Of a stretch of 64,000 nt of DNA, positions 25,421 through 63,032 are shown piece after piece. The position numbers were made by a program, and so were the translations under genes. The DNA is from Antedon mediterranea. Taxonomy: Eukaryota > Animalia > Echinodermata. The notes below the pieces were generated by a model. That model worked only from the letters and a program-made list of their open reading frames with translations. It did no database searches and had not been told where the DNA came from. Location: positions 2,790,001 through 2,854,000 of the forward strand of contig NC_092674.1 in assembly GCF_964355755.1 (NCBI RefSeq), given 5' to 3'. Position 1 is the stretch's first letter. The number at the start of each line of letters is the position of its first letter.

Positions 25421-26253
25421 AAGCAACCTATTCAAATACTGTATAATTTATACATCTGCTATTAATTATATTTTTGTTCCTCTTTTCATTTCAGTACAAA
25501 TATTTGTTTAATTTATAACCATATTGCATTATTACCAACATGTAAAATATATTTATGTACGAATCAAAACAAAATATATACATATAAAACTTCTGAATAT
25601 GGCATTAAATCTGCATAAACAGTGAAGACTATTAATAGAAAATTAACAAAATATTGCAAAGGACTATGCATTCAAATGGCTCTAAAACTGAAACTGGAAT
25701 AATGTGTCATCATTGATACTACAGTACTACTTGGAAAAACGTTTAAAAAAAACCTTTAAAAAAAACCTTATTTACATTAAAATCTGTTTATAACCGTATA
25801 GGTACTTTATGGAAGTTTAGAACAATTGATCACAAATTGATAGATACTCTTTATACTTCTTTTTCTTTTGAAATGAAACAAAATGTTTGGTTTCAACTAG
25901 AGACGCAACACATTGATTTGACCAATCACAGGCGATAGATTATTCAAACTGTTGCTTGTGATTATTCGAATCACTTGAATTGCGTCTACTTGCTTCTGTT
26001 GCGTCTCTAACGAGAACCACGCGTAAACAAGAATTACAGTTTATCTACTTAAACTGTGTTACTACTTAGTCACTGTAAATAGTTTTGTTTGTATCGTAGG
26101 TGGATTTTTAATCCATTTCCTTTTCTATTTATTCTTCCTTCTTCCTATTAGTTTACTGCATTCAATATTGCAAATTATACAGTACTACAGAGATATGATT
26201 ATATGATATGACAGATACAACTACCACTAAAACCTCGTCTATAGCAAAGAGTG

Positions 26254-26562
26254 AGTGAGTGGCCGAGCGGTTAAGACAGTGGAACCGTAATCACGTAGCC
26301 ATAACATCGGCAGGGGTTTGAGGCTCACTCACTCCATGGTTCTGGTGGTAGAACGAGTCTTCTCGGATAAGGACTATAAACCGTAGGTCCAGTGTACACA
26401 ACTTGCTCGTGTGCACTTTAAAGAACCTAGTACATCTTTCGAGATGAGTAGGGGGTTACCCCGGTGTAGTAGTACATCACAGCCACTGATCACCAACTGG
26501 GCCCTCTGGGAGATCAGTCTTTGACTGAAGAGGTCACCCAGTATAAAGATAAAAAAAACAAA
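26254..26562 (+). mobile_element. Full-length tRNA-headed SINE with Deu/Nin-like core
   Basis: A box TGGCCGAGCGG, B-box-like GGTTTGAGGC, core CGGATAAGGACTATAAACCGTAGGTCC..TAAAGAACC..GAGTAGGGGGTTACCCCGGTG, A-rich tail, flanked by the direct repeat CAAAGAGTG. Confidence 0.85.
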
Positions 26563-26994
26563 CAAAGAGTGTTACAACTCCCTGTCTATACTATCAAACT
26601 TTATAATGACAAAAAAATGTGATGTGCCCATGTATGAGCATGATTGTGTTATATCACTACCATATTTGGGCATGTCACTACCAAATTAGGGCAAACTAGT
26701 TTGATAGTGTACAGATTATTACATGACCTATTGTTACTAATAAAGATGTCAAGAGAGTAATTGTTAAAAACAAACAACACTTAACGGCTAAAAGGTAATT
26801 AGTTTTAAACAATAAAGAATTATAATACAATAGGTAGGAGTTAATCATGTTTTCCTATGTCGAAATCCTACCTCAGTACAGGATTCTCTCATGGTATTTA
26901 ACTATGACACTACACAACTTTCATATGACAGAGCACGAGTTAAGTTCTAATAGTGTAGTCCGCTAATACCACTGTATGTTGTTATCATGGGAGG

Positions 26995-27139
26995 TTATAT
27001 CACCCCGATAAGGAATTATATCACCCCGATAGAGAATTATATCACCCTGATGGGGAGTTATCACCCCGATAGGTAATTATATAACCCCGATAGGGAATTA
27101 TATCACCCCAATAGGGAATTATATCACCCCAATAGGGAA
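26995..27139. repeat. 21-bp minisatellite (TTATATCACCCCRATAGGGAA x7) overlapping the stop codon of the IL1R-like gene
   Basis: Units start at 26995, 27016, 27037, 27058, 27077, 27098 and 27119. The last unit encodes FPIGVI* on the minus strand. Confidence 0.9.
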
Positions 27140-30100
27140 TTTCTGTTGGAATAACTCCTCACTTTGACAGGAATTTTCTTCCGAGAATGAGTAACTGCTT
27201 GCACTCTCCTTGGACACGGATCTCATAGGGCAGAGATATGTTTGAGAGTTGGTTGAAGTTGATCTATCAATGTATTTACTATTCTTATGATAGTCATGAG
27301 GACGAGCGTGTCGAGGAGTACGTCTGGTAGGCATTCTCACTTCTAGTTTCTTCCAGAAGGTTTTATTAGTGCCACTGGGTGACCACTTCAAGACCTCTCC
27401 AGCTTTCATAAGATGCTGGAGGGCTTCCTGTCTGTTCAGACTATCTGGTGAAATTGGTCTGAACATGACTGGGATGATGTTCTTCTTCAGCCTGTGTTTT
27501 TCTAAAGCTTTATTGAATTCTATTGAGCAATATTGCCGTTTAATGTAATCTGGAGACAGCACTAAAATACAACATCTGCTACAGTTCACTGCATTCACCG
27601 AAACTGTACAATGATCTGAAAATAAAGTTCATTCAAGTGCTATAATAATTGTATGTGGGAATCCATGGTACATATTACGTCAAAGGTCAAATGTTCCTGA
27701 GATCGTTACTTCCTGTATGATCTAAAACAATTAAGAAATACTTTACCTTCTCCAGGCAGAAAATTGATCTCATCAATACACACATTGTACGACAATTCTT
27801 CCACAAGAAACGGACGCAAGGTACAAATGACAAAATCCCGGTCTTCTTCGGAGTTACTATATGAAATAAACGCATCAAATTTGCTGCTTTCTACAAAATA
27901 TAAAAACGTTTAGCATAAATGTATTGGTCAGTCCAGCTTGATGATCCCAATAAGTTAGAATTTTAGATTATAAAACCTACGCATTAATAATATTAGCCTT
28001 GACGAATAAATAGTGTTTTCCGAAATCTTGGACATTTTCGGTTTGATTTTATAGCTTTTTTGATTTGTATCTCCATAGAATTGATACCAATATATCATGA
28101 TACCTCTGATACCAACAACATTGACATTTTCCATGAGTAATGTGCTTTTAGTTTTATTTTATAAAACAATATATATTTTAAACTACTCTAGACCTAGCCA
28201 AAATCCAATTCACCTAATAAGCTAGTTACAATTTATACCATACACTCACTCACCATCAGAAGAACATTTTTCTAATTTTCTCCTCTTAATGAACAGGTGT
28301 ATATCTGTTTTGAAAATCATGTAAATTAACGTGAACACAAACAAGATTACTAAGGTTGAACCCAAAGCAAGAGCAACCACTGTGCTCCCTTCATTTATAA
28401 CTTGTGGCAAAGGCTCCGTTTTATCTTCTGAAATAAAACAAGACGACTTATCAATAAATAAAAAGGTTTTGGCTGCTTCAGTTTAGTACAGTCCATCAAT
28501 TATTAGATTAGATAGCCTATTATCAATAATTTGTACAAAGGTCAAATTTCAAGAATTTCTTTGACAAGAAATTCAAAACACACTAAACCCTCCAATTTAT
28601 TAAAGATGTATTGTCCCCCAAAACATGAAAAATGAAGAATTATTAAATCAGGCTTTGAATAGGTTATTTAGTAGTTTTAATAGAGTAAATAGTCAAACAA
28701 ATCTTATATAATGACAAAATAAATGGTTAAATTCAACTTTAAATTACAGTTTCTTCAGATAAATTTTTTTTTCTCGATCCAATTTTAGGTCAAAGTGGAT
28801 TATGTGACATTAAAATGGCATATTCAACCAAAACAAAAATTGATTGAGACACTGACCAATGATCTTGGTTAAGTTGAGAACATGAACTAGACTTTCTTCT
28901 CTTATCAACTGTACATAGTACTGCCCAAATGCATCATTGGTTATGTTGTATATGTGGAGTGATGTTCTAATGTCGGTTTTATCTCTGAAAAAACACATTA
29001 TATAAATAATAGATAATAATCTGGTTTCAAAACAAATTCATCTACTGTAGATATATTTATTTTATTTTTACTTATTTATTCAACTTCTCACTGAGATGTA
29101 CAGTACATCCAAAGACACAGACATAACACACATCTAGTGAAGGATGGGACCAACAGGTGGTAAACACCTCTAAAACAGTCCAGCCCCAATTGCACAATGA
29201 GCCCAGTTATGATCAGTGGATGTGTGTGTGTGTATTAGTACACCGGGGTAACATCCTACTTGTTTCAAAAGATGTACCATGTTCTTTAAAGTGCACACGA
29301 GCTAGATGTGTACACTGCACCTTTATAGTCCTTATCCTAGAAGACTCGTTCTACCCCAGAACCATGGAGTGATTGAGCCTCAAACCCTTGCCAAAAAAAT
29401 GCACCCCTCTTTATACACAATGATGGATGCACCCCTGCTGCAACTAAAGTACTACAAAAAGTTTCAACTTAAAGTTTTAATACCATCAATCAAACTACAG
29501 TGCTAGTAATGTAATCAGTCTAAACATACCCTTCTGGGCACTCTTCTTTCTTTACAACAAAAGTGGTAAAATTGGTAAATGGAACAGTAATATCTTCATA
29601 ACCAAAAGTATAGTATTGTACCACTGGCGAGTCGAGACTATACCAAATGATGGTAGGGCAAAGTTCACTACGGCCAATGTAAAAGTGACATTCAAATGTG
29701 ACGTTGTCCCCAATTCTTGCAGATTTGTCAAGGCAGTCTTTTTCTTGCAACAATTCGATAGTTCTTGTTTGTTTTGCTGTTAATAAAGTTTAAATAAAAA
29801 TAATATAAAATCATTTTTAGTGAAATGTTTTCATAATCTGAAGAGTACTTGCCACAAGTTAATCAGCGTGGTGCAAATTAGTATTTTATTAAGGTTTCTG
29901 GATCATTTTCTTGTTGTGATTGGGATAGATGGTTGGTAAAATTAAATTGTAACAAGCACTTTTGAAATTTGTGAAACAGAATAATAGTGAATCGATTATA
30001 AATCCCTTTTACTCTTACACTGCCAAGCTAAAAAACACATTTCATATCATAAACTTTTACGCTGTTACGGCCACTAAATACGCATTTTAGCGCCCCCGGT

Positions 30101-33045
30101 ATCACCCGGGTTACACAATTCCGGATCAACTCTGCAAATTTTTACTAGCATTGTAAAAATGGTATTTTGACTCACGTTTCACCCAAAGTTTTTGTGTAAA
30201 TTCCAATGTTTTGGTATCATTGCTAATAACACATTTGTAAGTACCCTCCATTCTCTCAGCAACTTCGCTAATACGTACTTCCTGATTGTCCTGCGCAAGT
30301 TGAATATTGCCTAATATAATGTCTATGGAATTGTTCCAATTGGGAAACTTCTGGCCCTCGAAATACCAAGTGATGTTGTCATAGTTACCAGCACAGCAAA
30401 GAATAGATACCAAATTTTCCTCTGTTTTAACTTCAAGGTTCGATGGGTCTGGATCAGTGAACTGCAAATCGGTTCCTTCATGAAATATAAATTCATTATT
30501 TTGAATTAAATTATTATTATGTAGTATTCATCACGCTAAAAATATTAGGGGCACACTGCCCCTTTGCTCTCATATAGTACATTTCATATAGGTCTACAGC
30601 CCCATTGGTGGTCGGAGGAGGTTTGAGAGGGTGGGGTGCAGCAGCCACTACGAGACATGAGGCTACCTGTTTTACTGAAAAATACTATGGACCAAGATGA
30701 CAGGAAAAAGGCCACGCCAGAGAGGGCACAATATTTGTAATAGTTTCCAGCAAAAGGTAAACCGTTTCTGACAGGGTTTGGGATAACATTATAGATGGCT
30801 AGTTTTCATTGATTCAAATGTAGGATCCCTTTAGCAATGGGCTTAGCATCCAGTATAGCTAAAATTGTGCGATAAATCATGACACAGGACGGGCCAGGGA
30901 ATAAAACTACTAATTTCACCCCGTCATTTCCCACGCTTGTGCTACCATCCAAATCCTTGGAAATATACCCCATAAATGGTGCACCTCCCCATATATTCCC
31001 ACACTTGTGCTACCAGATGCACAAAAATAATACCTCCTAAATGCTGCACCTCCCTGTAAGGAAATATTTAAGAGTGATCCCCACGAGATCTTTGTTTGTT
31101 TGTTTCTTTTATCTTTATACTGGATGACCTCTTCAGTCAAAGACTGATCTCCCAGAGGGCCCAGTTGGTGATCAGTGGCTGTGATGTACTAATACACCGG
31201 GGTAACCCCCTACTCGTCTCGAAAGATGTACTAGGTTCTTTAAAGTGCACACGAGCAAGTTGTGTACACTGGACCTACGGTTTATAGTCCTTATCCGAGA
31301 AGACTCGTTCTACCACCAGAACCAACCCATGGAGTGAGTGAGCCTCGAACCCCTGCCGATGTTATGGGTACGTGATTACGGTTCCACTGTCTTAACCGCT
31401 CGGCCACTCACCCACCGTCTACAGTTACAAATTATAGCTCTTCATCATTTTTATTTTCAAGGATAAAAAATATTTCTTAACATGTATTATTTAAAAAACT
31501 GATACTATTCTACTGTTCTGGTTTTTACACTGGGTTTAATATTTCCTTTTCTTAGTTAATAAAATAATAATTTCAAGGTGAAACGCTTTCTTTTCTAAAA
31601 AAAGACTTGTTTCTCGTTGAGTCATAAAACAGATGTAATCTCAAGTATGTTTTTACCAATATTATAGCAAGATTTCCCATGACGGGTCTCACTCAAATTC
31701 ATTTCTATTTGTGCTTATTAAAATTTCATTTGCTAAATACTGTATGCATTCAAATAAACACCCTGCTTTCAATAAACACCTCACCCAAATAAAATAACCC
31801 CTCCCCCACCCATAGAATATAATTTTGAATAAATGCGCCCCACATGCATATATTCACAATATTGTATTACAACACATTTCTATATGTACAGTAGTAGAAT
31901 TCATTGATTGACATGATCTACAATTTACCAATCATTTTGATACAATTTTTACTGTATTTTATCACTTCTCGATATTAACTGTATGTTGTATTTGTTCAAT
32001 TCAATCTATGTGGCATTTGGATAAAGGCCTAGCCTCATTTTAAATACTGTATCAATTATGTAAATATTGTATATATTTTTCATCATAAAGCAATATAAAA
32101 AATAAGAACATGGGGTGTGGTTTTGCTGTAATTCATCAAAGTCACACATTTTTTTGTCACAAAGTTTGATAGTGTAAACAGAGCTTTGTGTATCTGCTTT
32201 TTCATCGTCATTGTTTTCAATTCTCATTTTTTCTATGGGGTAGTATGTATTTGATTATAATATGTTACCATACTACACCCTTATTAGAATAAATATGATA
32301 GTACATCTTTTTTCAATGTGCATTTATCATTATTTGTATACCATTGTATTATTTGAAAATAATCATTTGAAAAAAGTTGAATAAATTGGGTTATCCCTCA
32401 CTAAAGAGATGCATGCCTATAGGCGTGTACTTAAATCAAACATCTGATATAACAACAAGGATTACAATATATTAATAACAAACTGAATTCTTAAGTACAA
32501 AACTGATCCTTAAAGTGCATTATAAAACAAACAATGACAAGTAAATGAATTATGAAGATTGCGTTAGGAGACATATTGTAATTAGAATACTTGTAAGCGA
32601 CTGTATTTATACGCGATCAGATAGATGAGAATTATTGATAACATAAATAACGATTACGAACAGGATGTTGATCACTAAAACCTTTATCTTAAATTATTCT
32701 AGTAGTAAATTATACAATAACTTAATTATTAATAATATTAACGATCTCAGAAGTTGTAAAACATCTTCGTCTAGCAGATTAGAAAAAAGATAAAATGGCA
32801 TTTTTCATCGGTTTTGTACAGAAATTCTAATTCTTCTGTAAGCTAGAAAATCTAGAATTGCAAACAGAGATTTTAAAATTTTTTAAACATTGGTTACATA
32901 AGAGGATAAACACAAAGGCAGTCAAAATTTTAAAATCAATTTTGAAAAAAAAAAACTCACCAATGATTGGATAATCATCACAGTCGTACGATGACGAGAA
33001 TGCTGGGATGGCAAAACACAAAACTAAAAGAACTGTTGGCAACAT
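27119..33045 (-). CDS. IL-1 receptor-like Ig-TIR receptor (signal peptide, 2 Ig domains, TM, TIR), about 524 aa
   Basis: Exons: 32961-33045 (signal peptide MLPTVLLVLCFAIPAFS), 30176-30475 (Ig1: ILCC..ITWY..EGTYKC), 29530-29776 and 28857-28984 (Ig2 split by a phase-2 intron), 28254-28427 (TM VVALALGSTLVILFVFTLIYMIF followed by KTDIHLF), 27747-27890 (TIR box1 FDAFISYS, BB-loop FLPGE), 27119-27615 (ILVLSPDY, YCSIEF, FWKKL; TAA). Joined length is 1575 nt, in frame. A probable 5' UTR exon has its donor at about 36432. Confidence 0.9.
29185..29395 (-). mobile_element. Deu/Nin-core-like SINE, partial and diverged
   Basis: Reverse-complement match to 26254-26562. Confidence 0.75.
31092..31412 (-). 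mobile_element. Full-length Deu/Nin-core-like SINE
   Basis: Near-identical reverse complement of 26254-26562, which is why two near-identical 63-aa ORFs appear in the ORF track. Confidence 0.85.
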
Positions 33046-33726
33046 TTTTTTAATCCTGAAAATGAAAAAATAATAATATTAATACAGTAAATTCAAACTA
33101 CATTTATTGAGCTTGGTTAAATTAATTTGCAACAATTATATTTATCAATTGACTTATAAATGAATGAACTTGAAAGTGGTTTGAAGAGTAACCACACTTT
33201 GAGGAAGTACGTACTTGTAGTTAAATTTAATATCAAATTTATTCTTTGTTTTTAATAAAATTTCTTTGAAATGTCTAGGTAAGTTATTAATTATATGAAC
33301 ATAGTCTAATCACGGAGGTAAAAAATAAATCTCCATGCTCCAATATAATTTTTTTTTCTATTGTAAATATGTACTGTAGCTACAGTATTTAATGTTAGGT
33401 TTTGCTTGAAGGATATAGCTTTTCTACAGGCATAAATTGATCAAAAGTAATAAAATATTGGATTGAAATGTAAACAATTAAAAGTGGAATACCTCTGAAA
33501 GTGTTTAAAAAAAAAATACATACCGATTTAAAATTCTTTAATGAAAATAACTTCTGCTGTCATCAGTGAATGGACTGTGAATGAAACTAAGCACTTATCT
33601 AACTTGTTTAATTACAGTACATGCAGTATCAAACGACCAATCACAATAGAATCATATAAAGGGGAGGAGCTAAAAGAGAGAACTTTTTTAGTTTACAAAA
33701 TATTTACAAAAATAGTGATTTTTGCA

Positions 33727-38803: not shown

Positions 38804-41800
38804 TTAAATATCAGTGAAATTAGGCCATTCTCCTACTAGACTCTCCATTTGTAGTTGCTCTTCAAAATCATCCTCTAATTTTTGCAACTGTTGTTTGAAT
38901 TCATTTTCTTTACCAAGCTTTGTTTTCTGAAAAATAACAATTCGGTCTAAATTTATATTTAGGCCTATATTTCAGATTCATTTTATATCGTCATAATGTT
39001 AAACAACTTAATACAAAACATATGAAATTCATTTTCCCAGAGACATTTAAAATTACACCAACAAACTAACAAATAATTTTTAAGTTTAAAATATACAAAA
39101 TACAAATATGCCTGTTTAAAAATTAAATTATATTTTTGATAATGCAAGTTATCATTATCATTACAAATAGTTTATGATTAAACAATAGGCTACTAAACTA
39201 ACCTGATTTGTTTCCAGTTCTTTTCCTGTTGCCTCTTTCTCCTTCAGTAACTGGATATCATTTAATATCCTTAAAAGTCTTTTGGACTCTTTTTGATATT
39301 CCAATGCATTTATTTGCCTTACAACTTGCTTTCCACTTTGTGTCCTTCTGAAATAGGTCGGTGATTTCCATTCATCAGGTATGGATGTGGCAGAAGGTGG
39401 GGAAAGATGTGATGTTGTCCTTGGTTTCACATAATATGCCACTGGTCCTGACCAGCTAAATCCAATGTAAAAAACAACTTCTTCCCGACTTTTAATTGTC
39501 GTTATCATAGTACTTGAAGAGGGAATAGTTATGGGTATGGATTCATATGTATACTGGTGTTTATAATTAATGGTATTGTTACCTGATAAGATGCCACTAG
39601 CCATAAATAGATTCTCTTTGACATAGCCACTCTGCCAGACTTGATCTGCCTGCTTTTCCAATTTACTTTGATTTGACGATATTTTGCTGTGGTGAACCAA
39701 TGCTTTCATACCTTTTCCATTTCCAAGGAAAAAGTGAACGCATGGCCGACTTCTCAAATGACCTCGATAAGGTCTGTGATGTGACAAATGTCCATCTTCT
39801 TGTTTATCCCGTTTCTGGGATGCATTCCAACGTTCCTTAATTTCCTTTAGAGACTTTTTCATCAAGCTGTTGTCATACTCCTGTGCCGGCTGACCTCGTG
39901 GCCAAAGCAACATGAGAAGAAATAATGGTGGATATAAGCTAAATCTCTGTTCGTCACAGTCACGTCTATCAAGTTCCTTAGCAAGATCGATCATTTCTCT
40001 GGTAGACGGCAAATCATACCGATATTTACCCTTTACGTTTACTGTCGACAGAGCTAAGTTTGTGAGCATAATGATTTTTAAGTCAAAGGCAGAGTAAGGC
40101 TTGTTTTCCAACAGCAACTTCCGAATTTCAAGCAGATTTTCAACTTTTTCTTCTTTAACTAACTCAAACACGTTTCTGATACTGACGCCACCAAGCTTGC
40201 GTGCTTTTAGGCGACGCACTTCATCTGCTGTTTCCGCTGATACAGACAATTTATTGTCGTCAAAAGAACCAAAATGTATTTCCCACGAAACAAAACATTT
40301 AGGAAGTCTAGACTTTATATCTTCAAATTCAGATTGACAAAAGTGTGTGAAGTTTGACCACTCTTTTTGAATTGTAATGTAGTTGATCAGTTTATCAATA
40401 GCCTCGTGTACATTTCTCATCAAACCTTTCATTTTCTTGTGATGTTCAGCCCACTTATCTAACACATCCGGTTTGTAGTGTTTGTCAACCAAGTATCTTT
40501 GTAGAATGCTTCGACCATTAGGAGATTGTTTGAATACATCAAGGCAAGCAAGAACATCTAACATATTAAATGTAATATTGAGCTCACCAGAGAAACTTGA
40601 CATATTTGTTTTATCATCAATTTCTTGTGATTTATGGAAACTGTCTATGCCATTAAAAGCCAATGTCAGCAACCTGCAACTATCATCTATGCTCAGTCCC
40701 TCATGTTTTAATACGTATTTACGATAAAATGATCGAATCAGTTCCTGCTTGTAAATTTGTCCTTTTGTGTCCCAATCAAAACAGTTGTTTTTTCTCATAT
40801 CAATAGCCTTATCTATAAACTCTAGGGCTTTAGTATGATCTTCCATTACCAGGTTGTAGTATCTTGCGATTTGTTGAGCAATCATTGGCTCTTTGAGAGT
40901 ATTAAATCCCTGAATAAGTACCTCACATGCTTTTTCTTTGCCGACATCTTTTATTGCCAATATAAGTGCCGAAAACAATTGTTTTGTAGAAGGACTCGGT
41001 CCTGTCTGATTCCTCTTGATAAGAAGATCTTGTGTTCGTGCAGCAAGATACTCTCGGCTATATGCAACAGCTGACAATAACTCGGACTCTAAATAAGTTG
41101 TCACTAATGAGCTCAGAGATTGCAAATTGGAGTGTTTTATGATAGCATCGGCTACTATTGGGTGAACTATTTTTAATCCTTGTACACTTCCTATGTCATA
41201 TGTCAACTGTACTCATCAGAACACGACAGCCTTCTGGCATAGTGTGTTCCCATGAACATCTTCGTTTCTTTTTTGCAGAAAAAGCAAACCCAATTAATTC
41301 GTCACAGCAAGAGACAGGAATTGCAGAATCTGGTTCAAATTTGCCGAATAACGAACAGAATTTTACCAATTCAAGTTCACGGGGACGGTGTTCTTCGAGA
41401 TCATCAATAATCCTTCCGACTGTACTTTGCACATAGTCAGATTTAAAATCTTCTTTCATTACCATAAAAGCAAGAAGGCGATCCGGCTTAAAATCTTCAT
41501 CACTTAGCATTTTGGTTTCAAGCTGATCATGCTTTGTCTGAAACCATTGTTTCTCTCTCTTATTCAATGATTGCCCTAACAATAAAGCATTGCAATCCTG
41601 AAGTAACGATTTGTCTTCTTTAATATCTCTTTGCGACATATATCTTCTACAACTGAGAATAACAAACGTACACCCTACAATGTGTCTTGTACTGTACTCT
41701 AATGAAATAACCATAGCTGTCAAGTCATTGTAAGGAAGGTTGTCACTAGCAATAACAAGAGGCAAACGTTCTTTTTGCAAATTGCAATCGCGTTCACCAT

Positions 41801-44800
41801 AGTTACACATTTCTAATATTTGATCTTTTGTCTGCTCAGTAATTTTGTTTAGAAGGACACATCTGTACTTCTTTCGAAACTCCCATAAGACATGTTTTAC
41901 AATCGTGCTTCCGCCAGCACCAGGTAGGTGAAACAGATGAAACCAACGAAATATTGCTTGGTTAAGCACTTTTTTCTGATGTGTTTGGTTAATCATGTTA
42001 TCAATTGCGTCTACTATTCTATTCTTGCCATCACGTTCACACACATGGTCATAGCCCATATCAGTGAACTTAAAATTCCAAAAGGAGAGTTTTTCTCCTC
42101 TGTAAAACTCTAACTCTGTATCTTTGCAGAAAGTATAGAAGTCTGGATTCTCTTCATTCATATCTGTGTTGTCACATTCATTATATGCAACAACAATAAA
42201 GTCCGTCCATTTCGAATCTTTCCATAATTGACATCCTTTGCCATTAACTGTTGGAAGAATGTAACTTGATTTTACATTTACACCTTGCATTTGTAAAATT
42301 ATATCATTCAAGCTTTTCAATGGAAGAACAGCTACTCTATCTTGTATTTCCTCAGGATTGCAGCATTTTTCGACGAGCTTACACCATTCCTTATAAACTC
42401 GGGAACTTTCGCAAATAAAAACCATATTTCTAATCCCAAAGTTTGTGTAAAACTTACGATATGCTTCACTCAGTACTTCAATGTTGTTAGGCAGCAAGAT
42501 AAAAATAACAAGACCTGTATCCTGTTGAATAACACTAATATTAGAAAAGAATTCAATAGCCTTATCCATATATTGGCTGCGTTCCTTAATCCACGTCATT
42601 CTGTCCATGGCATCGTCATCTTCCGTTCCTGTACGCCCGTTACAAAAGATCCATGCTGGAACTTCTCCGTAATTGATGTGAGATGGTGAAGTTACTGTGG
42701 CTAAATCATTTATGTCATAAAGATTTACCTTCTGTTTCAATCTCATTACCTTACATATGCCATTTTTATTTGAATTTTCATCAAAATCAAAGACAGCCTT
42801 CCATTTTACTTTACTAATAAACTCAAAAGTTTCATCAATGTTTTCAATGTCTGTACCAGGTACATTAACTACCAAGATTGCATTATAAACCAAATCAAAT
42901 GTTTTTTTCGATTGTGAGTCTCCAAAAAGCAATTCCCGAACCTTGTATTCGACTTCAGAAGCACATGATACATCGTGATCTGCCTTGGAACGTTTCTTCT
43001 TCCTTTTCTTGCTTGATTTACTTGCTTTACATTTTGGAATATTTTCCACTGCACCAATACTAGGCTGCAGGTCTTGTTTCGTTGATTTAATTAATGTATC
43101 AGTTTTAACAGAATCTGATGATGTAAGGTTTGCAGCTGACTTCTCAAGAATGTTTATCTGTTTGCTTCCTTTATCCTCATTTATCAGTCATATGGCCGAG
43201 CGGTTAAGGCAGGGGCGCCGTTTATCGTACCTAAAGAGCCAACAACAACATCGGCAAGGGTTCGAGGCCGACTCGCTCCTAGTTCTGGTGGTGGAACAAG
43301 TCTTCTCGGATAAGGACTATAAACCGTAGGTCCAGTGTACACAGTTATAACCTGTGTGTACTTTAAAGAACCCAGTTCATTATTCGAAAAAGAGTAGGGG
43401 GTTACCCCGGTGAACTGGTTCACACAATAGCGTCTGTATCAGGGGGATTACCACCTATCTGATAGGACAGTGATTAATTCACTATTGGTAATCCTTGGCC
43501 ACAGTGCCTAAAGACATAAAATAAAATAAAAAATTACACTTTGGAATGTGTATATCCATGCTCTTCTTCACTTGTTTAGGGTTTGTTTTAATATTTTCTA
43601 CTACTTTAGTTTTCTTTAATCCCGTTAAAGGTTCCAGTTTTTCTGAATCAGTTCTATATGTGAGTGTGACAGAATCGTCGGAACTTGTTATCCGTGTGTC
43701 TGAACTCTCCTTAACACATTTAGAACTTACTCCTGTAATTCCAATATCATCCACTCCTTCCTGTTCGATATTTTGAAACGTATGTGAAGATGAGGAAACT
43801 TCAGTTACACCAGGTTCAGGTTGCATTTCTCCGTCATTGAATCCCGTTCTTTCAGATTTCATTGATTTCGTTGCAGCAGTTGCTGAATTGATTTCAGCAT
43901 GTGTATTCACTTCTATAGGCTTTTTAATTTTTGCTGTTGGAGATTTTACATTTGTGTGAAAATCATACAAAATGACATCTGATTCTGAACTTTTCTCTAA
44001 ATATTTAGGCTTTACTTCAAAAGAAGCTGCGTCTAAAAATGTACTGCTTTCTCTGATTTCAGTATCAATGGACATTTTCTGCATATGCAAAACCAGCATA
44101 AGTGGACCAACTGGAAGATTGAAATCTTCTATAAAGTGCTCTTCTCGATATTGCAAAAATTTGAAACCATTCATATCCAAATGTGTAAATTTGTCTGCAT
44201 GTATAGGAGATAACCCTGCTCGTAATAATAATTTAGACACTGTTGTTGCACGACAGTCATCAGTTATAGGTTCCCAATTATCCTTTTGTCCTTCCAACAC
44301 CTCTTTTCTTTTCTTTTCTAGACTGTATTGAATCATGCGCAAGTCAGTCTTCTTAATTTCAAACTCTTTGAATATCTTGTCATGCTTATCTATAAGCAGA
44401 TTCTTTCCAATAAATTCCTGCTCATAAACCTGATTTGCAAGTTCTTTCAAACGAAGGTCCACTGAAAGCCATTCCCTCACCTCATTCCTATCCCACTCAG
44501 TTATTATCTTCTGGCTTTGGCCTTTAAACAAAAATAAAAGTTCACATACTATCTAAAAGTAATTGTTTAATGTTATATATAATGCCAGACTGAGGATACT
44601 ATACTTACCAACTTCTTTTAGTTTTGATAAAACTGCTGAGTACATGTTCTCGTCAATACGCGATGACAAAGTTTTGCAGAAGTGTTCAACTTCACTTTTT
44701 TCGACAAAGATCCTGGCTAGCTCTTGAATGAATTTTCCATTTTTGTGATTTTCCATCAGATTTTCTAAGGCATACGTATCATGAACTGCCACAATAATCT

Positions 44801-45374
44801 CTAACGATCCGGATGCTATACTTCGTAAGGCGAGACCCTTTCTTCGCATCAGAGCTTCAAGTTCAGACAGCTTCTCTAAAAATTCCTGATTAGTTTCTTC
44901 CCTGCATTTACCATCCAAGTTGTCTTCATAATATAAACCAAGGAGTAAAATCGCTCTCTGGACCGATTTCTGTTTACTCTCTCCTTGAACACTTTCATGG
45001 TTACCACGTTGTTCCTGTGTGTTTTCCTCGCTTCTTTTATGGATGTTGACTGTAATATCTATTTGTAACAAAATGAATATGGACACAATACAAAATAAGA
45101 GGTGCCATTTCGTTATATAGATTTGGTATGAAAATAAAACAAATTTAATTAATAATATATAATTTAATAGTTTATAACCCCAAATAAAAGCCAGTAGAAA
45201 TGCAATATGATTGGTCCTACATCTACTGTAAAAAATAATGTTACCAAAACAATTGTTCAAAACAATGTTGTTGTGTCCATCACATTGTATCTTTTCTTCT
45301 GATATGGTAAATTGTTTACCATCCTTAGTAACCACACGTTCTTCAGGTGAACTGCTGATATCTTGATCTGACAT
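38804..45374 (-). pseudogene. SAMD9-like STAND NTPase, copy B, disrupted (SINE insertion plus frameshift)
   Basis: Same 4-exon layout as copy A: 45245-45374, 44609-45058, 39203-44521, 38804-38926. Exon 3 is interrupted by an antisense SINE (about 43187-43533) that supplies a stop at 43482. A 2-bp loss at about 41200 shifts the frame (VDI* versus VNINELG in copy A). All SAMD9 motifs are otherwise retained (KWKAVFDFD, WIFCNGR, HLPGAGGST, FYIGFSWSGPVAY). Confidence 0.82.
43187..43533 (+). mobile_element. Deu/Nin-core-like SINE variant inserted in the coding exon of SAMD9-like copy B
   Basis: TGGCCGAGCGGTTAAG head, GGTTCGAGGCC B box, shared core, TAAAATAAAATAAAAAA tail. It is absent from copy A exon 3. 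A 3'-end fragment of the same family lies at about 53940-54010. Confidence 0.85.
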
Positions 45375-47379: not shown

Positions 47380-47759
47380 GTATCTTGAAAATAGTCTTTT
47401 TTCCAAACCAATAATTAGTAAAAACTAACCTTGACAAATAATAACGATCTATCATCAAACAGACTGACCTCTAGAGGGCCTATTCTGTTTAATGACAGGG
47501 TCATACACGTGACTGAGTTGGTGGGTGCCCTCGTCTCTGTTGATGATTTGGTTTCCTCGTCTGCGGATCCAGATGACCCTGTCATTAAACAGAATAGGCC
47601 CTCTAGAGGTCAGTCTGTTTGATGATAGATCGTCATTATTTCTGAAGAAGCTGTCCGATCAGGACAGCGAAACTGTCAAGGTTAGTTTTTACTAATTATA
47701 TTGGTTTGGAAAAAAGAATATTTTCAAGATACTACAAACCAGATGAACATTTTCAATCA
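47380..47759 (+). mobile_element. Penelope-like element 3' fragment with 5' inverted copy
   Basis: Flanked by the 12-bp direct repeat TAGTAGATCTAT (47368-47379, 47760-47771). Segment 47380-47503 is the inverted copy of 47572-47731. Contains a hammerhead core. Confidence 0.65.
47636..47684 (+). ncRNA. Minimal type-I hammerhead ribozyme motif (Penelope-type)
   Basis: CUGAAGA (47642-47648), stem II GCUGUCC/GGACAGC with GAUCA loop, GAAAC, then UGUC as the cleavage triplet context. Stems I and III are very short. Confidence 0.6.
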
Positions 47760-48760: not shown

Positions 48761-51700
48761 CTAGATCTCTTCCATATCTATCTGCTTTTTGAAATCATCT
48801 TCTAATTTTTTCATTTGCTGTTTGAAATCATGTTCTCTTCTCAGCTTTGCTTCCTGAAAATGAGAAAAAGATATCAAAATAGTTTTTCCAATTAGGGCCT
48901 ATGTTCTAAATGAAGAGGCCAAATCTTTGTAAAGAAATGCTACTTATTTGCTACCGTATTCAAAATGAAATCTAGAAGCATGTTGGTAACTGGAAACTAA
49001 TAACGATACAGTTATAAATCACATAAAGATGCTCATTAATAACAAACCTGATTTTGTTCCAGTTTTTTTCCTTGTCTAACCTTCATCTTAAGTGCTTCAA
49101 TTTCAATTACTTTCTTGTTAAGATCCTTGCGTTTCTTATGATATTCATCTACACTTATTTGGTGTACAACTTGCTTCTCTGTTCTTGAAAAAGCAGAGGG
49201 TCTCCATTCATCATGAGTCTGTCTGTATGTCATAGGCTCTGGTAAATGTGATGCTGCCTTTGGTTTTACGTAATATGCCACTGGTCCTCCCCAGCTAAAG
49301 CCAATGTAAAACACAACTTCTTCCCGACTTGCAAATGTTATGTTACTTGATGAAGCAAGTGGAAATTGAATGGATTCATCCATATAATCGTGTTTAAATA
49401 TTATGTTGTTAGTTTCTGATAAGGTACCTTCAACCTTTAACAAATTCTCTTTGACGTAAGCACTATGCCAGACTTGATCCTTTTCCAATCTAATTTGGGA
49501 TGATGATATTTTGGTTTGGTGTACCAGTGCTCTAAGACCCTTTCCATTTCCAAGGAAAAAGTGAACCAATGGCCTTTTACGAATTCGCTGACTTTTCAAA
49601 TGAGGTCCGTAAACTAGATGTCCATCTTCTTGTTTATCCTGTCTCAGTAACAAATTCCAGCGTCGTCGGGTTTCAAGTAGAGATTTCTTCATCAGACTGT
49701 TATCATATTCGTCTGCAGGTTGACCTCGTGGCCAAAGCAGCATAAGCAGATATACTGGTGCAAATAAAGTAAAGCTTCCTTCTTGTCGGTCACATTGATA
49801 AAATTCCTTAGCAAGGTCTATCATTTCTGTGACAGACGGTAAACTGTACTGACTTTTCTTCACATTCGTTATTGTTGATAACGCTAAGTTGGTCTGTATT
49901 ATTATTTTCAAATCGAATGCAGAGTAAGGGTTATTTTCTAACAGTAACTTTCTAATCTCTAACAATTTCTCTGTTTCCATCTCGAACAGCTTTCTGCCAC
50001 TGGTGCCAATAAGCTTTCGCGCTTTTAAACGACGTAGGTCATTTGCTGTTTCTACTGATACCTTGATTTCCTTATCAAGATCAATACAACCAAAATGTGT
50101 GTCCCATGAGCATAAGTAAGAAGCAATTAGCCTTTGTAGCTTGAAAGATTCATCAAGTTTTGTAAAGTTAGACCACTCCTTTTGGTATGTTAAATGATTG
50201 TTCATTGTATCAATAGCCTTGTGAACATTTCTCATCAAACCTTTCATTTTCATATGATGTTCAGCCCATTTGGCTAACACATCTGGTTTATAATCCTTGT
50301 CAACCAAGTAACGCTGTAAAATATTACGACCAGCAGGAGTTTGTTTAAATACATCAAGGCAGGCAAGAACATCTAACATCTTGAATGTAATATCAACTTC
50401 GCCAGAAAAAGTTGACATGCTTTTGTTATCATCAATTTCTTGAGATTTATGAAAAGTATCTATGCCATTAAAAGCTAGTTGCAAAAGTTTACAACTATCA
50501 TCTATGCCAAGTAACTCATTTTTTACAACATATTTGTTATAGAACGCTTTTATCAGTTCGTTTTTATAGATCTGTCCCTTTGTATCCAAAAGAAAAGAGT
50601 TGTTCCCTCTCATGCCAATAGCTATCTCTATATACTCTAACGCTTTGGAGTGATCTTCTATTATCATACTGTAGTACCTTGCAACTTGTTGAGCAATCAT
50701 GGGATCTTGTAGGATATGGAATCCTTCAATAAGCACATAACATGCATATTCCTTGTCAACATCTTTTATTGCCAATATAAGAGCAGAAAAGGGTTGCTTT
50801 ACAAAGGAAAGAAACCCTGTTTGATTTCTCTTTATAAGGAGATCATGTGTTTGTGCAGCAAGATATTTTCGACTATATGATTTTGCAGTGAGTAATTTGG
50901 ACTTCAAAAAATGTGTCACTAAGGAACTCAGAGATACTGAGTTTGCATCTACACGCAGGATAAAATCAGCTACAATTGGATGAACAATCTTTAATCCTTG
51001 TACAGCTCCCAGCTCATTTATGTTAACTGTACTCATCAGAAGAGAACAGCCGTCTGATATATTGTGTTCCCATGGACATTCTCGTCCTTTCTTTACAGAA
51101 AAGGCAAACCCAATGAACTCATCACAGCATGGGATCGGAATAGCGGAATCACGTTCAAACTTGCTGAATAATGAACAAAATCTGACTAATTCAAATTCTT
51201 GTGGATGCTGTTCTTTAAGATCATCAAGAACTCTGCCGACTGTATGCTCTACGTACTCAGATTGAAAGTCTTCCTTCATCACCATAAAAGCAAGAAGACG
51301 ATCCGGCTTAAAATCTTTGTCATCATCACTTTTCATTCTTCTTTCAAGCTGATCATGCTTTGCCTGAAACCATTTTTTTTCTTTGTCACTCAGTGAGTGC
51401 TCTAAAAAGAATGCTTTCTCTTTGTTACCATATTTATCTTCTTTGATATCACCTTTTGACATATATCTTTTACAATTCAAAATTATACACGTACGTCCTG
51501 GAATGTGTTTGGTACTGTATTCTAATGAAACAACCATGGCTGTCAAATCATCATAGAAAATATTATCGCTAACAATAACAAGAGGTAAACAAACTCTTTT
51601 ACCATTGTAATCTCGTTCTCCATAGTTCCACATGTCTAATATTTGTGCTTCGGTCTGATCAGTAATCTTATTTAAAAGAATACATCTGTATCTTTGCCGA

Positions 51701-54700
51701 AACTCCCATAGAATATGCTTGACAACAGTACTTCCACCAGCTCCAGGTTGGTGAAACAAGTGAAACCAATGAAAAACTGCTTGGCCAAGTGTTTTGACCG
51801 GCTGAGTTGGTTGTTTAATTTCGTTCTCAATTGCCTCTACCATGCTATATTTGACATCTCGTTGGCATACATGATCGAATTTGAAATTCCAAAATGAGAG
51901 TTTTTCCCCTCTATAAAAATTCAACTCGGTATCTTTACAGAATGTTTCGAAGTCCGGATGTTCTTTGTTCATATCTGTGTTGTCACATTCGTTGTATGCA
52001 ATCACCGATAAATCAACCCATTTAGATTTGTCTTTTTCCAACAGGTTACATCTTTTCCCATTAACTGTTGGCAACATGTAATCCGATTTCAAATTTACAC
52101 CTTGCATTCGTAAGATTATGTCATTGAAAATGTGGAATGGAACAACGACTAATCTTTCTTCTAGCTTTTCTTGATGACAGTACCGTCTCACTTGTTTACA
52201 CCATTGATCGAAAACCTGTCTCTGTTCACATATAAAGATGATACGATGGATGCCAAAGTCGGTATAGAACTTACGGAATGCTTCACTCAATACTTCAATG
52301 TTGTTAGGCAACAAGATAAAAATTACAAGACCTGAATCCTGTCGAATAATACAAGTATTTGAAAAGAATTCAACAGCCTTATCCATAGCTTGACTGCGTT
52401 TCTCGATCCAGGACATTCTGTCCATTTGTGAAACATCAATATCTGATCGCCCATTACAAAATACCCATGTTGGAACTTCTGCATAATTTATTTCAGATGG
52501 TGAAGTTACCTTGGCTATGTCTGTTATGCCGTAAAGATTTACCTCCTGTTTTGATCTCATTGACTTGCAGATGCCACTTTTGTTCGAATTAGCATCAAAA
52601 TCAAAGACAGCCTTCCATTTTACTTTTGATATAAACTCAAAAGTTTTATCGACATTTGGAATTTTCGTACCAGGTACATCAATTACAAGGATCGCATCAT
52701 AAACTATATCAAATGTAGTTTTTAATTGTGAGTCTTCAAGCAGCAATTCCCGAATTTTGTGTTCAGCTTCAGAATAATCTGATATATCCGTTGTTGTGAC
52801 ACGTTTCTTCTTCTTTTTCTTGCTCGATTTATTTTCTTTAAACACATGTTTGTCACGTGTGTCGTATTCTTGTTTATTGCTCTGTATACTTTTTGGGACT
52901 TTCGCTATTGCACCAATACCAGTTTGCAGCTCTTTTCTATCAGTTCCAAGTTGTGTTGATTTGATTGTTTTGTCAGTTGCAACTGAATACAAAAGGGAAT
53001 TCCCTGTTTTACCACCTAATCCTGATTGAGATTCTCTCTCTTCTCCATCACCTCTATTATCACAGCCTTCAGATTGCGAGTCAATGTTTGAAGCAGAATT
53101 ATCGGCAAAGGTCGGGCGTGTGCCCAGACTTTCCTTGAAACATTTAGACTTCAACTCTGTATTTTCAATCTTCTGCTCTTCTTTTTGCTGAGTGTTTATT
53201 TCAATGTTGTTAATACTTTCTTCTGAAGTAGCATCTTCTTTTTTAATTCCTGCTGTTGGAGATTTGACGTTTGTAGAACTGTCAGAAATGGCTATATCTG
53301 TATTTGGACTTGGACCAAACTCCTCCACATCTTTCTCATTTTGAATGTTAGACTTACTGACAGCGCCATGTAATACTTTACTGCTTTCTCTAATTTCTGC
53401 ATCACTGGACAATGTCTGGGGAACTTGTGATATGTTCTGCATATGTAAAACCAACAATAGTGGTCCACTTGTCAGATTAAAATCTTCCACAAAGTGCTCT
53501 TCTCGATATTTCAAAAACTTAACACCAGTCATATCCATGTTTGCAAATTTTTCTGCGTGAATCGGAGGTAATCCTGCCTGAAATAATAATTCAGATACTC
53601 TTGTTGCACTACAGTCATTAGTTACAGTTTTCCAACTATCCTCTTTTCCTTCCGGTAAATCTTTCCTTTTCTCTTCTAGACTGTATTGAATCATGCGCAA
53701 GTCGGTCTTTTTAAGTTTAAACTCCTTGAATATCTTGTCGTGCTTATCTATAAGCAGATTCTGTCCAATATATTCCTGCTCATAAACCTGATTTGCGATT
53801 TCTTCTTTCAGACAAAGTTCCATTGAGAGCCATTCTCTCACTCGGTTCCTATCCCACTCGGATATTAACTGATGGCTTTGACCTTAAATGATAAAGTGTT
53901 AAAATGATATCTAAATTGAACACAACTATATGATGGCCATTGATTAATTTACCATTAGTAATTCTTGGCCACATGTGCCTAAATACATTTTTAAAAAATA
54001 AATAAATAAATTGAACCCAACAAATGTAAATGTATCTTTATTATATTACTGCATGAACAGCTGATAAGTTGAGTTACATGCACTTATAATACTGAACAGG
54101 AAATATAAGATAATTAATTGTCTACCCATGAAATGGCGTTGTGAACTCAATATATGAATTGAACCAAATGATCCAATTAAACGATTAAATGATTCAGTAA
54201 ATTTAAAAACAGTCATATGTACTTAAATTACCATAGAAAGCAGCATTCCTGATGAATACTTACCAACTGGTTTTAGTTTTGATAAAACTGCTGTGTACAT
54301 GTTCTCGTCAATGTTCGATGACCAACTTCTGCAAAAGCGTTCAACTTTGCTTTCTGTGGCGAAGATTTTCGCAAGCTCTAGAATAACTTTTCCACTTCTG
54401 TGATTTTCCATCAGTTTTTCTAAGGCATACGTGTCATGAACTGCCACAGTGATCTCCAACGATCCTGATCTTATACTTTGTAAATCGAGGCCCATTTTTC
54501 GCATCATAGCGTTAAGTTCAGAGATCTTCTCTAAAAGTACTTGCCTAGATTCTTCATCGCATTGACCGTCCAAATTCTCTGAGTAAAACCAAATAGTACG
54601 TAGTAACTCTTTCTCGACCGTTTTTGGTTTATGTTGCTCTTGGTTGTGTTCAGGGTTACGTTGTTTGTCCTTATTTTCAAGTTGTTTGTTTTTGTTGTTG

Positions 54701-55214
54701 ATGTTGATTGTAATATCTATTTAAATCAAAATTAAAACGGCTAAAACATAAATAAAACTGAAAACAGGCGGTGTCTCTTTTTTTATATAAAGCATTTACG
54801 TAAGCAGCAACCTGATTATTTACGACCGATGTTGCCGATGAGTGAAAGAGATTAGGTCACAAAAGTCACTGAGATGCCCACAGCATATTCAAAGTAAAGT
54901 AGAATAAGCCTTTCACTAATGTTATATATGTTTAATTTTTTTTAACCAAATGTTTTAAATATTTTTATATCGTAGGCCTACTATGAAATACACTGAAAAA
55001 AAATTCCTATTTACGAAATAAAGTGAAATGGAAATGTAAATTGTATTGATCTAACGTAAAAGGTAGCATTCTTACTACAATTGTTACAATTTTTAAAAAC
55101 ATTGTTGTTGTTTCCTTCAAGACATATCTCTAGTGGTGAAATCGTCACTTTATTACCAACTTTAGTATAATGAACCACAGGTTCGGGTGGACTGCTGCCA
55201 TCTTGATCTGACAT
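48761..55214 (-). CDS. SAMD9: SAMD9/SAMD9L-family STAND NTPase, copy A, intact, about 1839 aa, atypical architecture (RHIM-like, TRADD-N-like, 2xSAM, linker, SIR2-like, P-loop, TPR, OB, eIF2A-like tail)
   Basis: Exons 55076-55214, 54264-54716, 49048-53882, 48761-48853 join in frame (5520 nt). SAMD9-specific motifs: KWKAVFDFD, PTWVFCNGR, NECDNT, FYRGEKLSFWNF, HLFHQPGAGGST (Lys-less Walker A as in SAMD9), ILWEFRQRYRC, AFMVMKEDF, IVHPIVA, QQVARYY, DTKGQIYK, LLWP, HFFLGNGKG, FYIGFSWGGPVAY. The family call is secure; one-to-one orthology is not claimed. Confidence 0.92.
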
Positions 55215-61222: not shown

Positions 61223-63032
61223 ATGACGGCACATCGTCATAGCAACTATGTTGAAGTACTGTTTGTGTTGCTAGTTGTCTTAGTAGTAACAGTTGTTGCA
61301 GATGACGTTTGTGATAGGACAACACCAATAGGTAACTTACTAAATCTTGTTTCCCACTAGGACGCAACGCAAGGACGTTAGCGCAACGCAAGTGATTTTA
61401 CCAGTGAAGAGTGACATATTTGTTTAAACTCTTCCCTGATTTGACTAATCATGACGCAATGGATTATTTGAACTGCGCTTATGATTAGTCAACTCGCTTG
61501 CGTTGCGCTTACGTGGTGCGTTACGTCCTAGTGAGAACCTAGCTTTACTGGGATATAGCATTGATGTGACTATTGATAGTGGAAAAAATAGGATTTCCGT
61601 CGATGGGGTGGACAATGAACGAGTAGCCCTAAGTGATGGTGCCGGGACGTAATTGACCGGTGACGGGTATTGATAAGTGGCAAAAATCAACCTGACAATG
61701 AAATGGCGTCGAGTGACAAAAATGACAATAACATTCGAATTCAACAAATTGCATTATTTAATAAAATTAACCAATTTGACGACGGCGCTGATATCATGAC
61801 GATGGCTACAGCAGAACCGTACACTTATGTGTAGGTCTCACGTAATGCGACATGACGTCATTCCACACTCATAGATACAGGGCACCATGACCCCTTTCCC
61901 AGTCAGTCTTCGCTGTTGATGACGGACGGAGACAAATGAATGCAATGACGAAGAAAAATACCGTTAAGGCCAATTTACACAGACGAGCGGCAACGGTAAT
62001 AAAATATATAATCTATGTTATTCCTTATGACCATTTACACACAACGCTTAGGATAGATACATCATTATTCTACGTGGGACAAGCTACGCGGTTCCGCTTA
62101 CCGTTACCGGTCGCCTGTATAAATTGGCCTTTAGTGAAATAATACTGATTCTTATTTCTCAAGGTAACAAGTTATCATTCTACGCAACACAGAAGAGTAC
62201 ATATGTTGAAATAAGAAAGTACTTCTACATTAAATGTTGTGCACAGTGGTATGATACCATTGAATGGTACAAGGATGTGATCAGTCCATCAACCCGTATC
62301 GGTCAAAGGTCAATACCTAGTGGCTGCAATCATTGTGGTGTCCAGCACGCCTTTACGTTCAAAGAGAATGGACAAGTGTTGAAAGTGAGAGAAAGTGTTA
62401 AAGACTACCATACGGGAACTTATATTTGTGTTATAAGAAATGGGACGGTTAATGAGACTTTCAAACAAGATGTAACAGTACAACGTAAGTCATCAGAATT
62501 GGTATTTTTTTTATTCTATTCAAAAGGTTAACCCATATTTAAAATGCATTTTCATTTATGCAGAGAATATATAAATAAATAAACAAGGTCATATACATGG
62601 CTGCAGTCGCGTGCTCAAGTTAGTGTTTACCACCGACCAACCGACCGACATGAGCTGTTGTAGAGTCGCATTGCACGCGACTAAAAACAATATTGAACAG
62701 AAAAATGTAGACGTGGCGCGTGTAAATGTTCATTTAGTTCATCCTTCCTATCTTTAATTTAATCAATGTGCTTTCGTCCATTTAGCTATAAATAATTTAC
62801 AATCATCTACAAACCTGACACTCGCTAACGACGAATGTGAACTGAACGTGTATGCGAATATTGGTGACAACACAACAATTTGCTGCACGTTCTCACAGTT
62901 GACGCTGGATTTTGACATACGATGGGAAAGAACGATAAATGGTACAGAATTCATCCATCTAATCAAATCCGAAGGAACTAAAAAGGAGTTTGAATATACG
63001 ACATTTGTTGCGTATACAACTTACTTTAAATC
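61223..63032 (+). CDS. Second IL-1R-like Ig receptor paralogue, 3'-partial
   Basis: Exons: 61223-61331 (MTAHRHSNYVEVLFVLLVVLVVTVVADDVCD, signal peptide), 62164-62484 (Ig1: IKCCAQWYDTIEWY..TGTYICVIRN), 62786-63032 (first half of Ig2: ANIGDNTTICC..IRW). Phases match the 27-33 kb gene and the third exon has the same 247-nt length. TM and TIR are not seen within the window. Confidence 0.82.
62582..62687 (-). mobile_element. Short Helentron/HINE-like element
   Basis: Same termini (CACGCGACTAAAAA, AGTCGCGTG, AACAAGG) and (GACC)n core as the element at 45436-46204. Confidence 0.6.

Follow-up and report, generated by a model that had tools for sequence, protein, structure and literature searches.

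A SAMD9-like gene of the crinoid Antedon mediterranea lacks the AlbA_2 nuclease domain and encodes a predicted TRADD-N domain

SAMD9/9L proteins, which include SAMD9, an antiviral protein in humans, carry in their canonical form an AlbA_2/Schlafen-like nuclease ahead of a SIR2-like domain, with cleavage of tRNA-Phe and arrest of translation as hallmarks. A 64-kb stretch of Antedon mediterranea DNA (hereafter the window) contains two tandem genes of this family on the minus strand, copy A and copy B, and a preliminary description had placed a disordered linker in copy A where the nuclease would be expected. The locus thus raises the question of whether AlbA_2 is truly absent, what the linker represents and how such a protein might signal. 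Exon 3 of copy A matched human SAMD9 cryo-EM chains over residues 395-1539 (phmmer, E 5.7e-88), and XP_071949915.1, an A. mediterranea SAMD9-like protein, is 100% identical to this exon over residues 370-1560. Splice-site analysis resolved copy A into four exons with an open frame of 1839 aa; the public model XP_071949915.1 has 1719 aa, its start falling within exon 2, inside TRADD-N. The features of copy A are as follows.

55076-55214, minus strand: exon 1, predicted (ATG at 55214, phase-1 donor), with an Asn/Gly-rich beta-type motif
54264-54716, minus strand: exon 2, with TRADD-N at about 54621-54265 and its Gly-Ser turn (fold match, weak Pfam match)
53882-49048, minus strand: exon 3 (splice-site analysis)
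53437-53882, minus strand: two SAM-like domains at the start of exon 3 (own SAM profile)
52774-53436, minus strand: disordered linker, 221 aa (composition, AlphaFold2, profile comparison)
52801-52821, minus strand: basic run of six Lys and one Arg (sequence; kept in copy B and Anneissia)
52090-52773, minus strand: SIR2-like domain and delta element (phmmer to human SAMD9, AlphaFold2)
50941-52089, minus strand: STAND NTPase, NOD (phmmer to human SAMD9, motif residues)
49255-50940, minus strand: TPR region and OB fold (human SAMD9 alignment; bounds set by motifs)
48761-49254, minus strand: C-terminal helical tail (splice-site analysis)
49047-48854, minus strand: last intron (splice-site analysis)
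48853-48761, minus strand: exon 4 with the stop (splice-site analysis)

Exons 1 and 2 had been missed in the preliminary description, and the TRADD-N exon lies beyond the coordinates it covered. Exon 1 is 73% identical in DNA to exon 1 of copy B, and the N-terminus that it encodes resembles that of Anneissia P0003. Run X5 (RNA by our guess) has contigs that connect the TRADD-N exon with the SAM exon; these come from related copies, 82-90% alike. The X5 contig that bridges the last intron is ~87% alike and therefore derives from a related copy as well. Among the run contigs listed we saw neither an exon 1-2 junction nor a transcript of copy A itself, the X5 contigs being those of related copies. 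Neither SAM-like domain matched Pfam SAM; both were found with our own profile, and the first folds in the AlphaFold2 model (pLDDT 62-84), the second reaching only 42-51. The C-terminal helical tail (49254-48761) had no Pfam match. With a profile of our own it was detected in 41 of the 182 fetched proteins, including AlbA-bearing members from hemichordates and corals, and hence is not tied to AlbA loss.

The remainder of exon 3 follows the SAMD9 order of SIR2-like domain, NOD, TPR and OB. The NOD has a SAMD9-type Walker A (an upstream His and Gly-Gly-Ser-Thr), the sensor-1 Arg and the WHD His, and the equivalents of H737, G742-G743, D799, R837, H985 and R685 are all kept, with roles taken from the human SAMD9 work (PMC13600222). 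Walker B reads Asp-Asn, like that of molluscan members.

Is the nuclease truly missing? The Pfam family PF04326 proved too weak to decide this, matching one of the nine AlbA-bearing relatives scanned, and that one under its cut-off. Since it misses most true cases, we used in its place a profile made from SAMD9 relatives and covering their AlbA regions, which scored 191-341 bits on 55 of 67 relatives; a vertebrate-only profile still recovered invertebrate domains (molluscan, cnidarian) at 94-210 bits. Run over the six frames of the 64-kb window, the SAMD9-AlbA profile gave no positive score, which rules out a hidden AlbA exon within the window, and profile-profile comparison of the copy A linker with AlbA returned a probability of 0.1%, against 100% for the positive control. 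The interval between the second SAM-like domain and the SIR2-like domain holds no folded domain in the AlphaFold2 model, where it is coil. The absence of AlbA_2 claimed in the preliminary description is thus borne out. Judged from its sequence, copy A would have no SAMD9-type tRNase, and with no nuclease before the SIR2-like domain we do not class it as a tRNase-type SAMD9/9L.

At the other end of the protein, exon 2 encodes a putative TRADD-N domain. Its match to Pfam TRADD-like_N falls under the cut-off (E 0.019); three sea-star relatives echo this match. The exon 2 model, built from 7 sequences, has a pLDDT of 70 and a pTM of 0.64, and its first strand may be wrong. A Foldseek search of this model against the PDB returned nothing at E <= 0.001, with 1f3v at E 0.88. 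When Foldseek's top 997 chains were realigned, human TRADD-N (1f3v_A) was the top match (Z 8.1, rmsd 3.2, 109 aligned; next unrelated fold, Z 6.1), a Z at the edge of what the alignment tool calls common and from a realignment that re-examines Foldseek's own list. The domain has the RRM-like alpha/beta fold with a Gly-Ser turn between strands 2 and 3, the turn that holds the TRAF2-contact serine of TRADD (Kaur et al., PMC8195603), and the turn is kept in six of seven aligned domains. The vertebrate TRADD N-terminal domain (PDB 1F3V, with TRAF2) shares this fold and turn, but is only 12% identical, and the copy A domain is fused to a STAND sensor rather than to a Death domain. TRADD-N was not found in four of the 11 AlbA-less proteins (P0004, P0007, P0008, P0012), some of which may be incomplete models. 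A search for other longer proteins with the exon-2 domain gave only P0002, which counts for little, and a TRADD-like Atlas match (0.77) at the Anneissia N-terminus is a lead. TRADD-N is likely to be the output module of copy A.

A different output is conceivable just upstream. Both Antedon copies, Anneissia P0003 and Patiria P0006 show an alternating hydrophobic/Gly/Asn pattern ahead of TRADD-N, and P0007, a protein without TRADD-N, has it twice; RHIMs, moreover, occupy adaptor positions in invertebrate immune proteins, those of STAND type included (PMC4262963). It is therefore possible that this is an amyloid-signalling motif. The fuller reading, in which a RHIM-like signal on the activated oligomer seeds a partner fibril, with TRADD-N and SAM secondary, we consider unlikely. 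Pfam RHIM did not match the N-terminal motif, although the statistical power of short motifs is low (PMC4262963), and when the three crinoid motifs were made into a profile, it missed those of sea stars (best -2.2 bits). The pattern, built from these same sequences, had 12 matches across 304,349 residues where shuffled sequences gave 9.3, and the structure model spends part of the Asn/Gly stretch on a TRADD-N strand. A four-copy complex prediction of the Anneissia motif scored 0.02 and has no bearing either way. With tests negative or empty, the amyloid-type motif stays a lead. The motif region (55214-54700, minus strand) has a dN/dS of 0.96 (0.47-2.22, few codons) between copies A and B, and both it and TRADD-N lie above SAM or the core in this measure.

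The history of the family bears on how the nuclease was lost. We built a tree of the SIR2-NOD core from 34 sequences (33 of the 182 fetched, chosen for taxon spread, plus copy B; 588 columns); taxa came from two word-based searches, and sea urchins, brittle stars and sea cucumbers are not represented. All 11 AlbA-less sequences form one clade (IQ-TREE SH-aLRT/UFBoot 98.7/99; FastTree 0.988) of three crinoid and six sea-star proteins, P0004 from the hemichordate Ptychodera, and P0012, apart from the AlbA-bearing hemichordate clade. It is in this 11-member split (98.7/99) that the copy A core groups with sea-star proteins tabulated in PMC8195603. The single clade indicates that AlbA loss is old, and should the P0004 model be correct, AlbA was lost before echinoderms and hemichordates parted.

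The SIR2 surface changed along with the clade. Human SAMD9 R522 is a SIR2-dimer residue required for activation; it and the other human SIR2/SIR2 contacts (Q514, R515, R553, Q565) are not kept in copy A, and these positions also vary among AlbA-bearing members. The R522 position is Asp or Glu in all 10 AlbA-less proteins counted and in one of 169 AlbA-bearing ones, a count that leaves aside P0049 (1149 aa, no AlbA, no SIR2 start, a probable fragment) and the duplicates P0001 and P0182. The acidic residue is a single inherited change, not ten. The R593 position is Lys or Arg in nine of the 11 AlbA-less proteins, and from these residues we infer a candidate salt-bridged SIR2 dimer surface in the clade.

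These data speak to a second alternative, that copy A is a sensor-only or decoy paralog, co-oligomerising with or regulating an AlbA-bearing SAMD9 encoded elsewhere. Hemichordates have both types (Ptychodera P0004 without AlbA, P0070 with it), and the Antedon runs contain more related copies. Against this, a hemichordate AlbA region used as query brought up no echinoderm protein by name within the best 120 of 497 matches, which hemichordates top and of which many entries are unnamed, and the acidic position 522 suggests a self-specific SIR2 pairing. We regard a decoy role as quite unlikely; the search suggests that echinoderms may lack a nuclease-type SAMD9.

What, then, is the linker? The preliminary description had seen a stretch of about 215 residues rich in Ser, Thr, Glu, Lys and Gly and devoid of a hydrophobic core, and this portrait holds: over 53436-52774 (minus strand) these five residues make up 50%, and hydrophobic residues 19%, half the 38% of the core. 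In an AlphaFold2 model of exon 3 residues 1-700 (10 sequences), residues 152-369 are coil with block pLDDT of 29-40, and the SIR2-like domain reaches 65-90 in the same model. The basic run noted at the linker's end, and likened there to an NLS, is also present, nine residues ahead of the first SIR2 helix and at the matching place in all three crinoid sequences (copy A, copy B, Anneissia), while at least six Lys/Arg in eight residues occur in two of 147 AlbA-bearing linkers.

The idea that the linker replaces AlbA_2 is not supported. In AlbA-bearing relatives this position already holds a linker of similar composition (median 80 aa, n=147; hydrophobic fraction 0.20-0.23), and in human SAMD9 a disordered segment separates SAM from the tRNase (PMC13600222), so the linker has little of the look of a substitute. 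In AlbA-less proteins with SAM it spans 113-267 aa, in a comparison where the AlbA-bearing P0097 sat in the wrong group. Most simply, AlbA would have been deleted up to the first SIR2 helix and the spacer lengthened. The linker is likely an ordinary spacer.

Between copies A and B the linker is 43% identical (180 aligned residues), where folded domains keep 63-72%; to Anneissia the figures are 27% and 48-68%. Linker dN/dS between the copies is 0.57 (bootstrap 0.35-0.81), an average over one pair of which one member is a pseudogene and the alignment uncertain, compared with 0.22-0.37 for SAM, SIR2, NOD, TPR and OB; TRADD-N, at 0.62 (0.37-1.16), is close to the linker value. The linker is therefore fast-evolving, as had been proposed, insofar as its identity lies far below that of the folded domains, but with dN/dS below 1 it is under relaxed constraint.

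The preliminary description had further suggested that the linker could serve as protease bait, and one may imagine a pathogen protease cutting it to release or activate the N-terminal module. Immune sensors of this tripwire kind, NLRP1 and CARD8, have a long disordered region on their N-terminal side. Copy A is like them in this respect, its long linker being disordered and accessible and more variable than any other part of the protein, and contigs of related copies match both flanks yet join across it (52716 to 53424 in X5, 52784 to 53394 in X2). Unlike NLRP1/CARD8, copy A has no FIIND (no Pfam family matches exon 3 at E <= 1), shows no sign of positive selection in the average over one pair of copies and has no shared protease motifs: seven protease-site patterns, a set that may not include the proteases relevant to Antedon, were neither in excess over shuffles in the linker nor common to the three crinoid linkers. 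In human SAMD9, loss of the first ~150 residues, comprising SAM and the similar disordered segment, has a minor effect (PMC13600222). Cleavage in the linker would also part the adaptor from the oligomerising core. Given a dN/dS below 1 and no excess or sharing of protease motifs, the bait idea is unsupported, and we hold it very unlikely. Least probable of all is that the SIR2-like domain serves as effector through NADase activity, the way bacterial Avs5 does, so that no nuclease is needed: copy A keeps Asn-Gly where PaAvs5-1 has Asn-Gly in place of His-Gly, but this and the Phe-Asp-Phe-Asp pattern also occur in AlbA-bearing members, the Avs5 catalytic motifs GAGxS and TTNxD, as given in the accessible text of PMC12931631, are not seen in the aligned blocks, and the human SAMD9 SIR2-like domain has no NAD-binding lid (PMC13600222).

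Part of the linker's contrast with copy B stems from changes in copy B itself. The features of copy B are as follows.

39203-45374, minus strand: copy B exons 1-3 (45374-45245, 45058-44609, 44521-39203), with the last exon from 38926; layout as copy A
43187-43535, plus strand: tRNA-type SINE, antisense in the copy B linker, with a head of what we take to be A/B-box-like sequence and an A-rich tail
41203-41208, minus strand: 2-bp deletion relative to copy A, a frame shift inside NOD (copy comparison)

The copy B linker (~257 aa) had been described as strongly different from that of copy A, and at 43% identity it is; ~350 bp of the DNA difference, however, are the SINE, an element the preliminary description had passed over, whose insertion accounts for part of the contrast and brings in-frame stops into the linker. 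The SINE family appears to be high-copy and of tRNA type: relatives 78-80% alike at 26251-26566, 29201-29392, 31095-31415 and 7163-7377 make five copies in the window, and contig depth is very high in all four runs; tRNA and Rfam calls on the element gave nothing. An assembly error behind the frame shift was rejected, as contigs from three runs of one sample (one individual) are identical to the window in this region. With X at its two breaks copy B has no further stop, and it is thus likely a young pseudogene.

Further family copies exist outside the window, as indicated by contigs from the same sample that are 80-90% alike on folded domains at 50764-53100 and 53444-54587. One related-copy contig has a 1-base gap at 52561, and a contig of run X2 joins 52755 to 55178, that is, exon-1-like sequence to the SIR2 start with undetermined letters in the middle; it may come from a paralog whose N-terminus is arranged differently. 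Other features surround the pair. About 6 kb from copy B, a multi-exon IL-1-receptor-like gene occupies 27119-33078 (minus strand): it has Ig-like exons, its segment 28246-28482 is membrane-spanning, and 27119-27628 encodes a TIR domain (Pfam TIR_2, E 2.7e-08). On the opposite flank, an Ig exon at 62052-62531 (plus strand) hints at another gene of this type. A 930-aa coiled-coil exon at 13928-16720 (minus strand) is golgin-like by appearance, and a MITE-like inverted repeat of ~350 bp sits between copies A and B (47380-47732).

How does copy A compare with what is in print? Human SAMD9/SAMD9L (PDB 9zjr, 37id and others; PMC13600222) shares with it SAM, a disordered segment, the SIR2-like domain and delta, NOD with the His/Gly-Gly Walker A, TPR and OB. 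Copy A differs in having no AlbA_2, an extra TRADD-N, a second SAM, a longer linker and the C-terminal helical tail, with Asp at the R522 position and Asn at D800. AlbA_2 loss in some SAMD9 members was reported by Mekhedov et al. 2017 (PMC5445408), whose table gives sea urchin XP_003727489.1 as SAM and SIR2 with no AlbA row and one fish protein as SAM, PYRIN and SIR2. These members resemble copy A in their AlbA loss; TRADD-N has no occurrence in the accessible supplements of that paper. The layout of copy A, with TRADD-N ahead of SAM, is that of the echinoderm TRADD-N-SAM-STAND proteins of Kaur et al. 2021 (PMC8195603). Supplementary file 4 of that study has at least 10 echinoderm rows of TRADDN-DEDD2+SAM+STAND, P0009 and P0011 among them, and XP_022081709.1, XP_022110147.1 and XP_003727489.1 are examples in its Figure 4 source data 1. 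Like copy A, these proteins have TRADD-N, SAM, a long spacer and a SAMD9-type core with no AlbA listed, and P0009 and P0011 fall in the same clade; the crinoid copies differ in their pair of SAM-like domains and in lacking ubiquitin-like and Death domains. For such proteins the accessible parts of the study give architectures only. The word 'echinoderm' is absent from the accessible text of Legrand et al. 2025 (PMC12680541), and a literature search in which subscription journals are little covered found no paper devoted to echinoderm or invertebrate AlbA-less or TRADD-N SAMD9. AlbA loss in some members and the TRADD-N, SAM and STAND layout are thus already in print, and as the architecture is tabulated, what we add is the single origin, the clade-specific change of the SIR2 surface and a corrected gene model.

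With the nuclease missing and TRADD-N up front, copy A likely signals via recruited partner proteins, and we think it probable that it is an intracellular immune sensor acting by partner recruitment and not by tRNA cutting. By analogy with human SAMD9, resting copy A would be ATP-bound and closed, and a trigger would cause opening and self-association via SIR2 and OB contacts. The clustered TRADD-N domains, if they behave as in vertebrate TRADD, might then bind a TRAF-type MATH domain and set off an NF-kB or death signal. In this picture the linker would act as a passive tether, free to drift in length and sequence with its basic patch kept. A bolder version, in which echinoderms have no tRNase-type SAMD9, AlbA_2 was lost once, the SIR2 surface was rewired acid-base and an amyloid motif signals together with TRADD-N, seems to us improbable as a whole; if true, SAMD9 would have changed from a self-contained nuclease to an NLR-like, amyloid-seeding receptor.

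The partner-recruitment reading would make the SAMD9 switch a modular platform, its SIR2-NOD-TPR-OB core under purifying selection without a nuclease and kept in this form since the crinoid-sea star divergence. Such natural nuclease-free versions could help to split sensing from killing in SAMD9 biology, and they provide a candidate family of intracellular receptors for echinoderm immunity.
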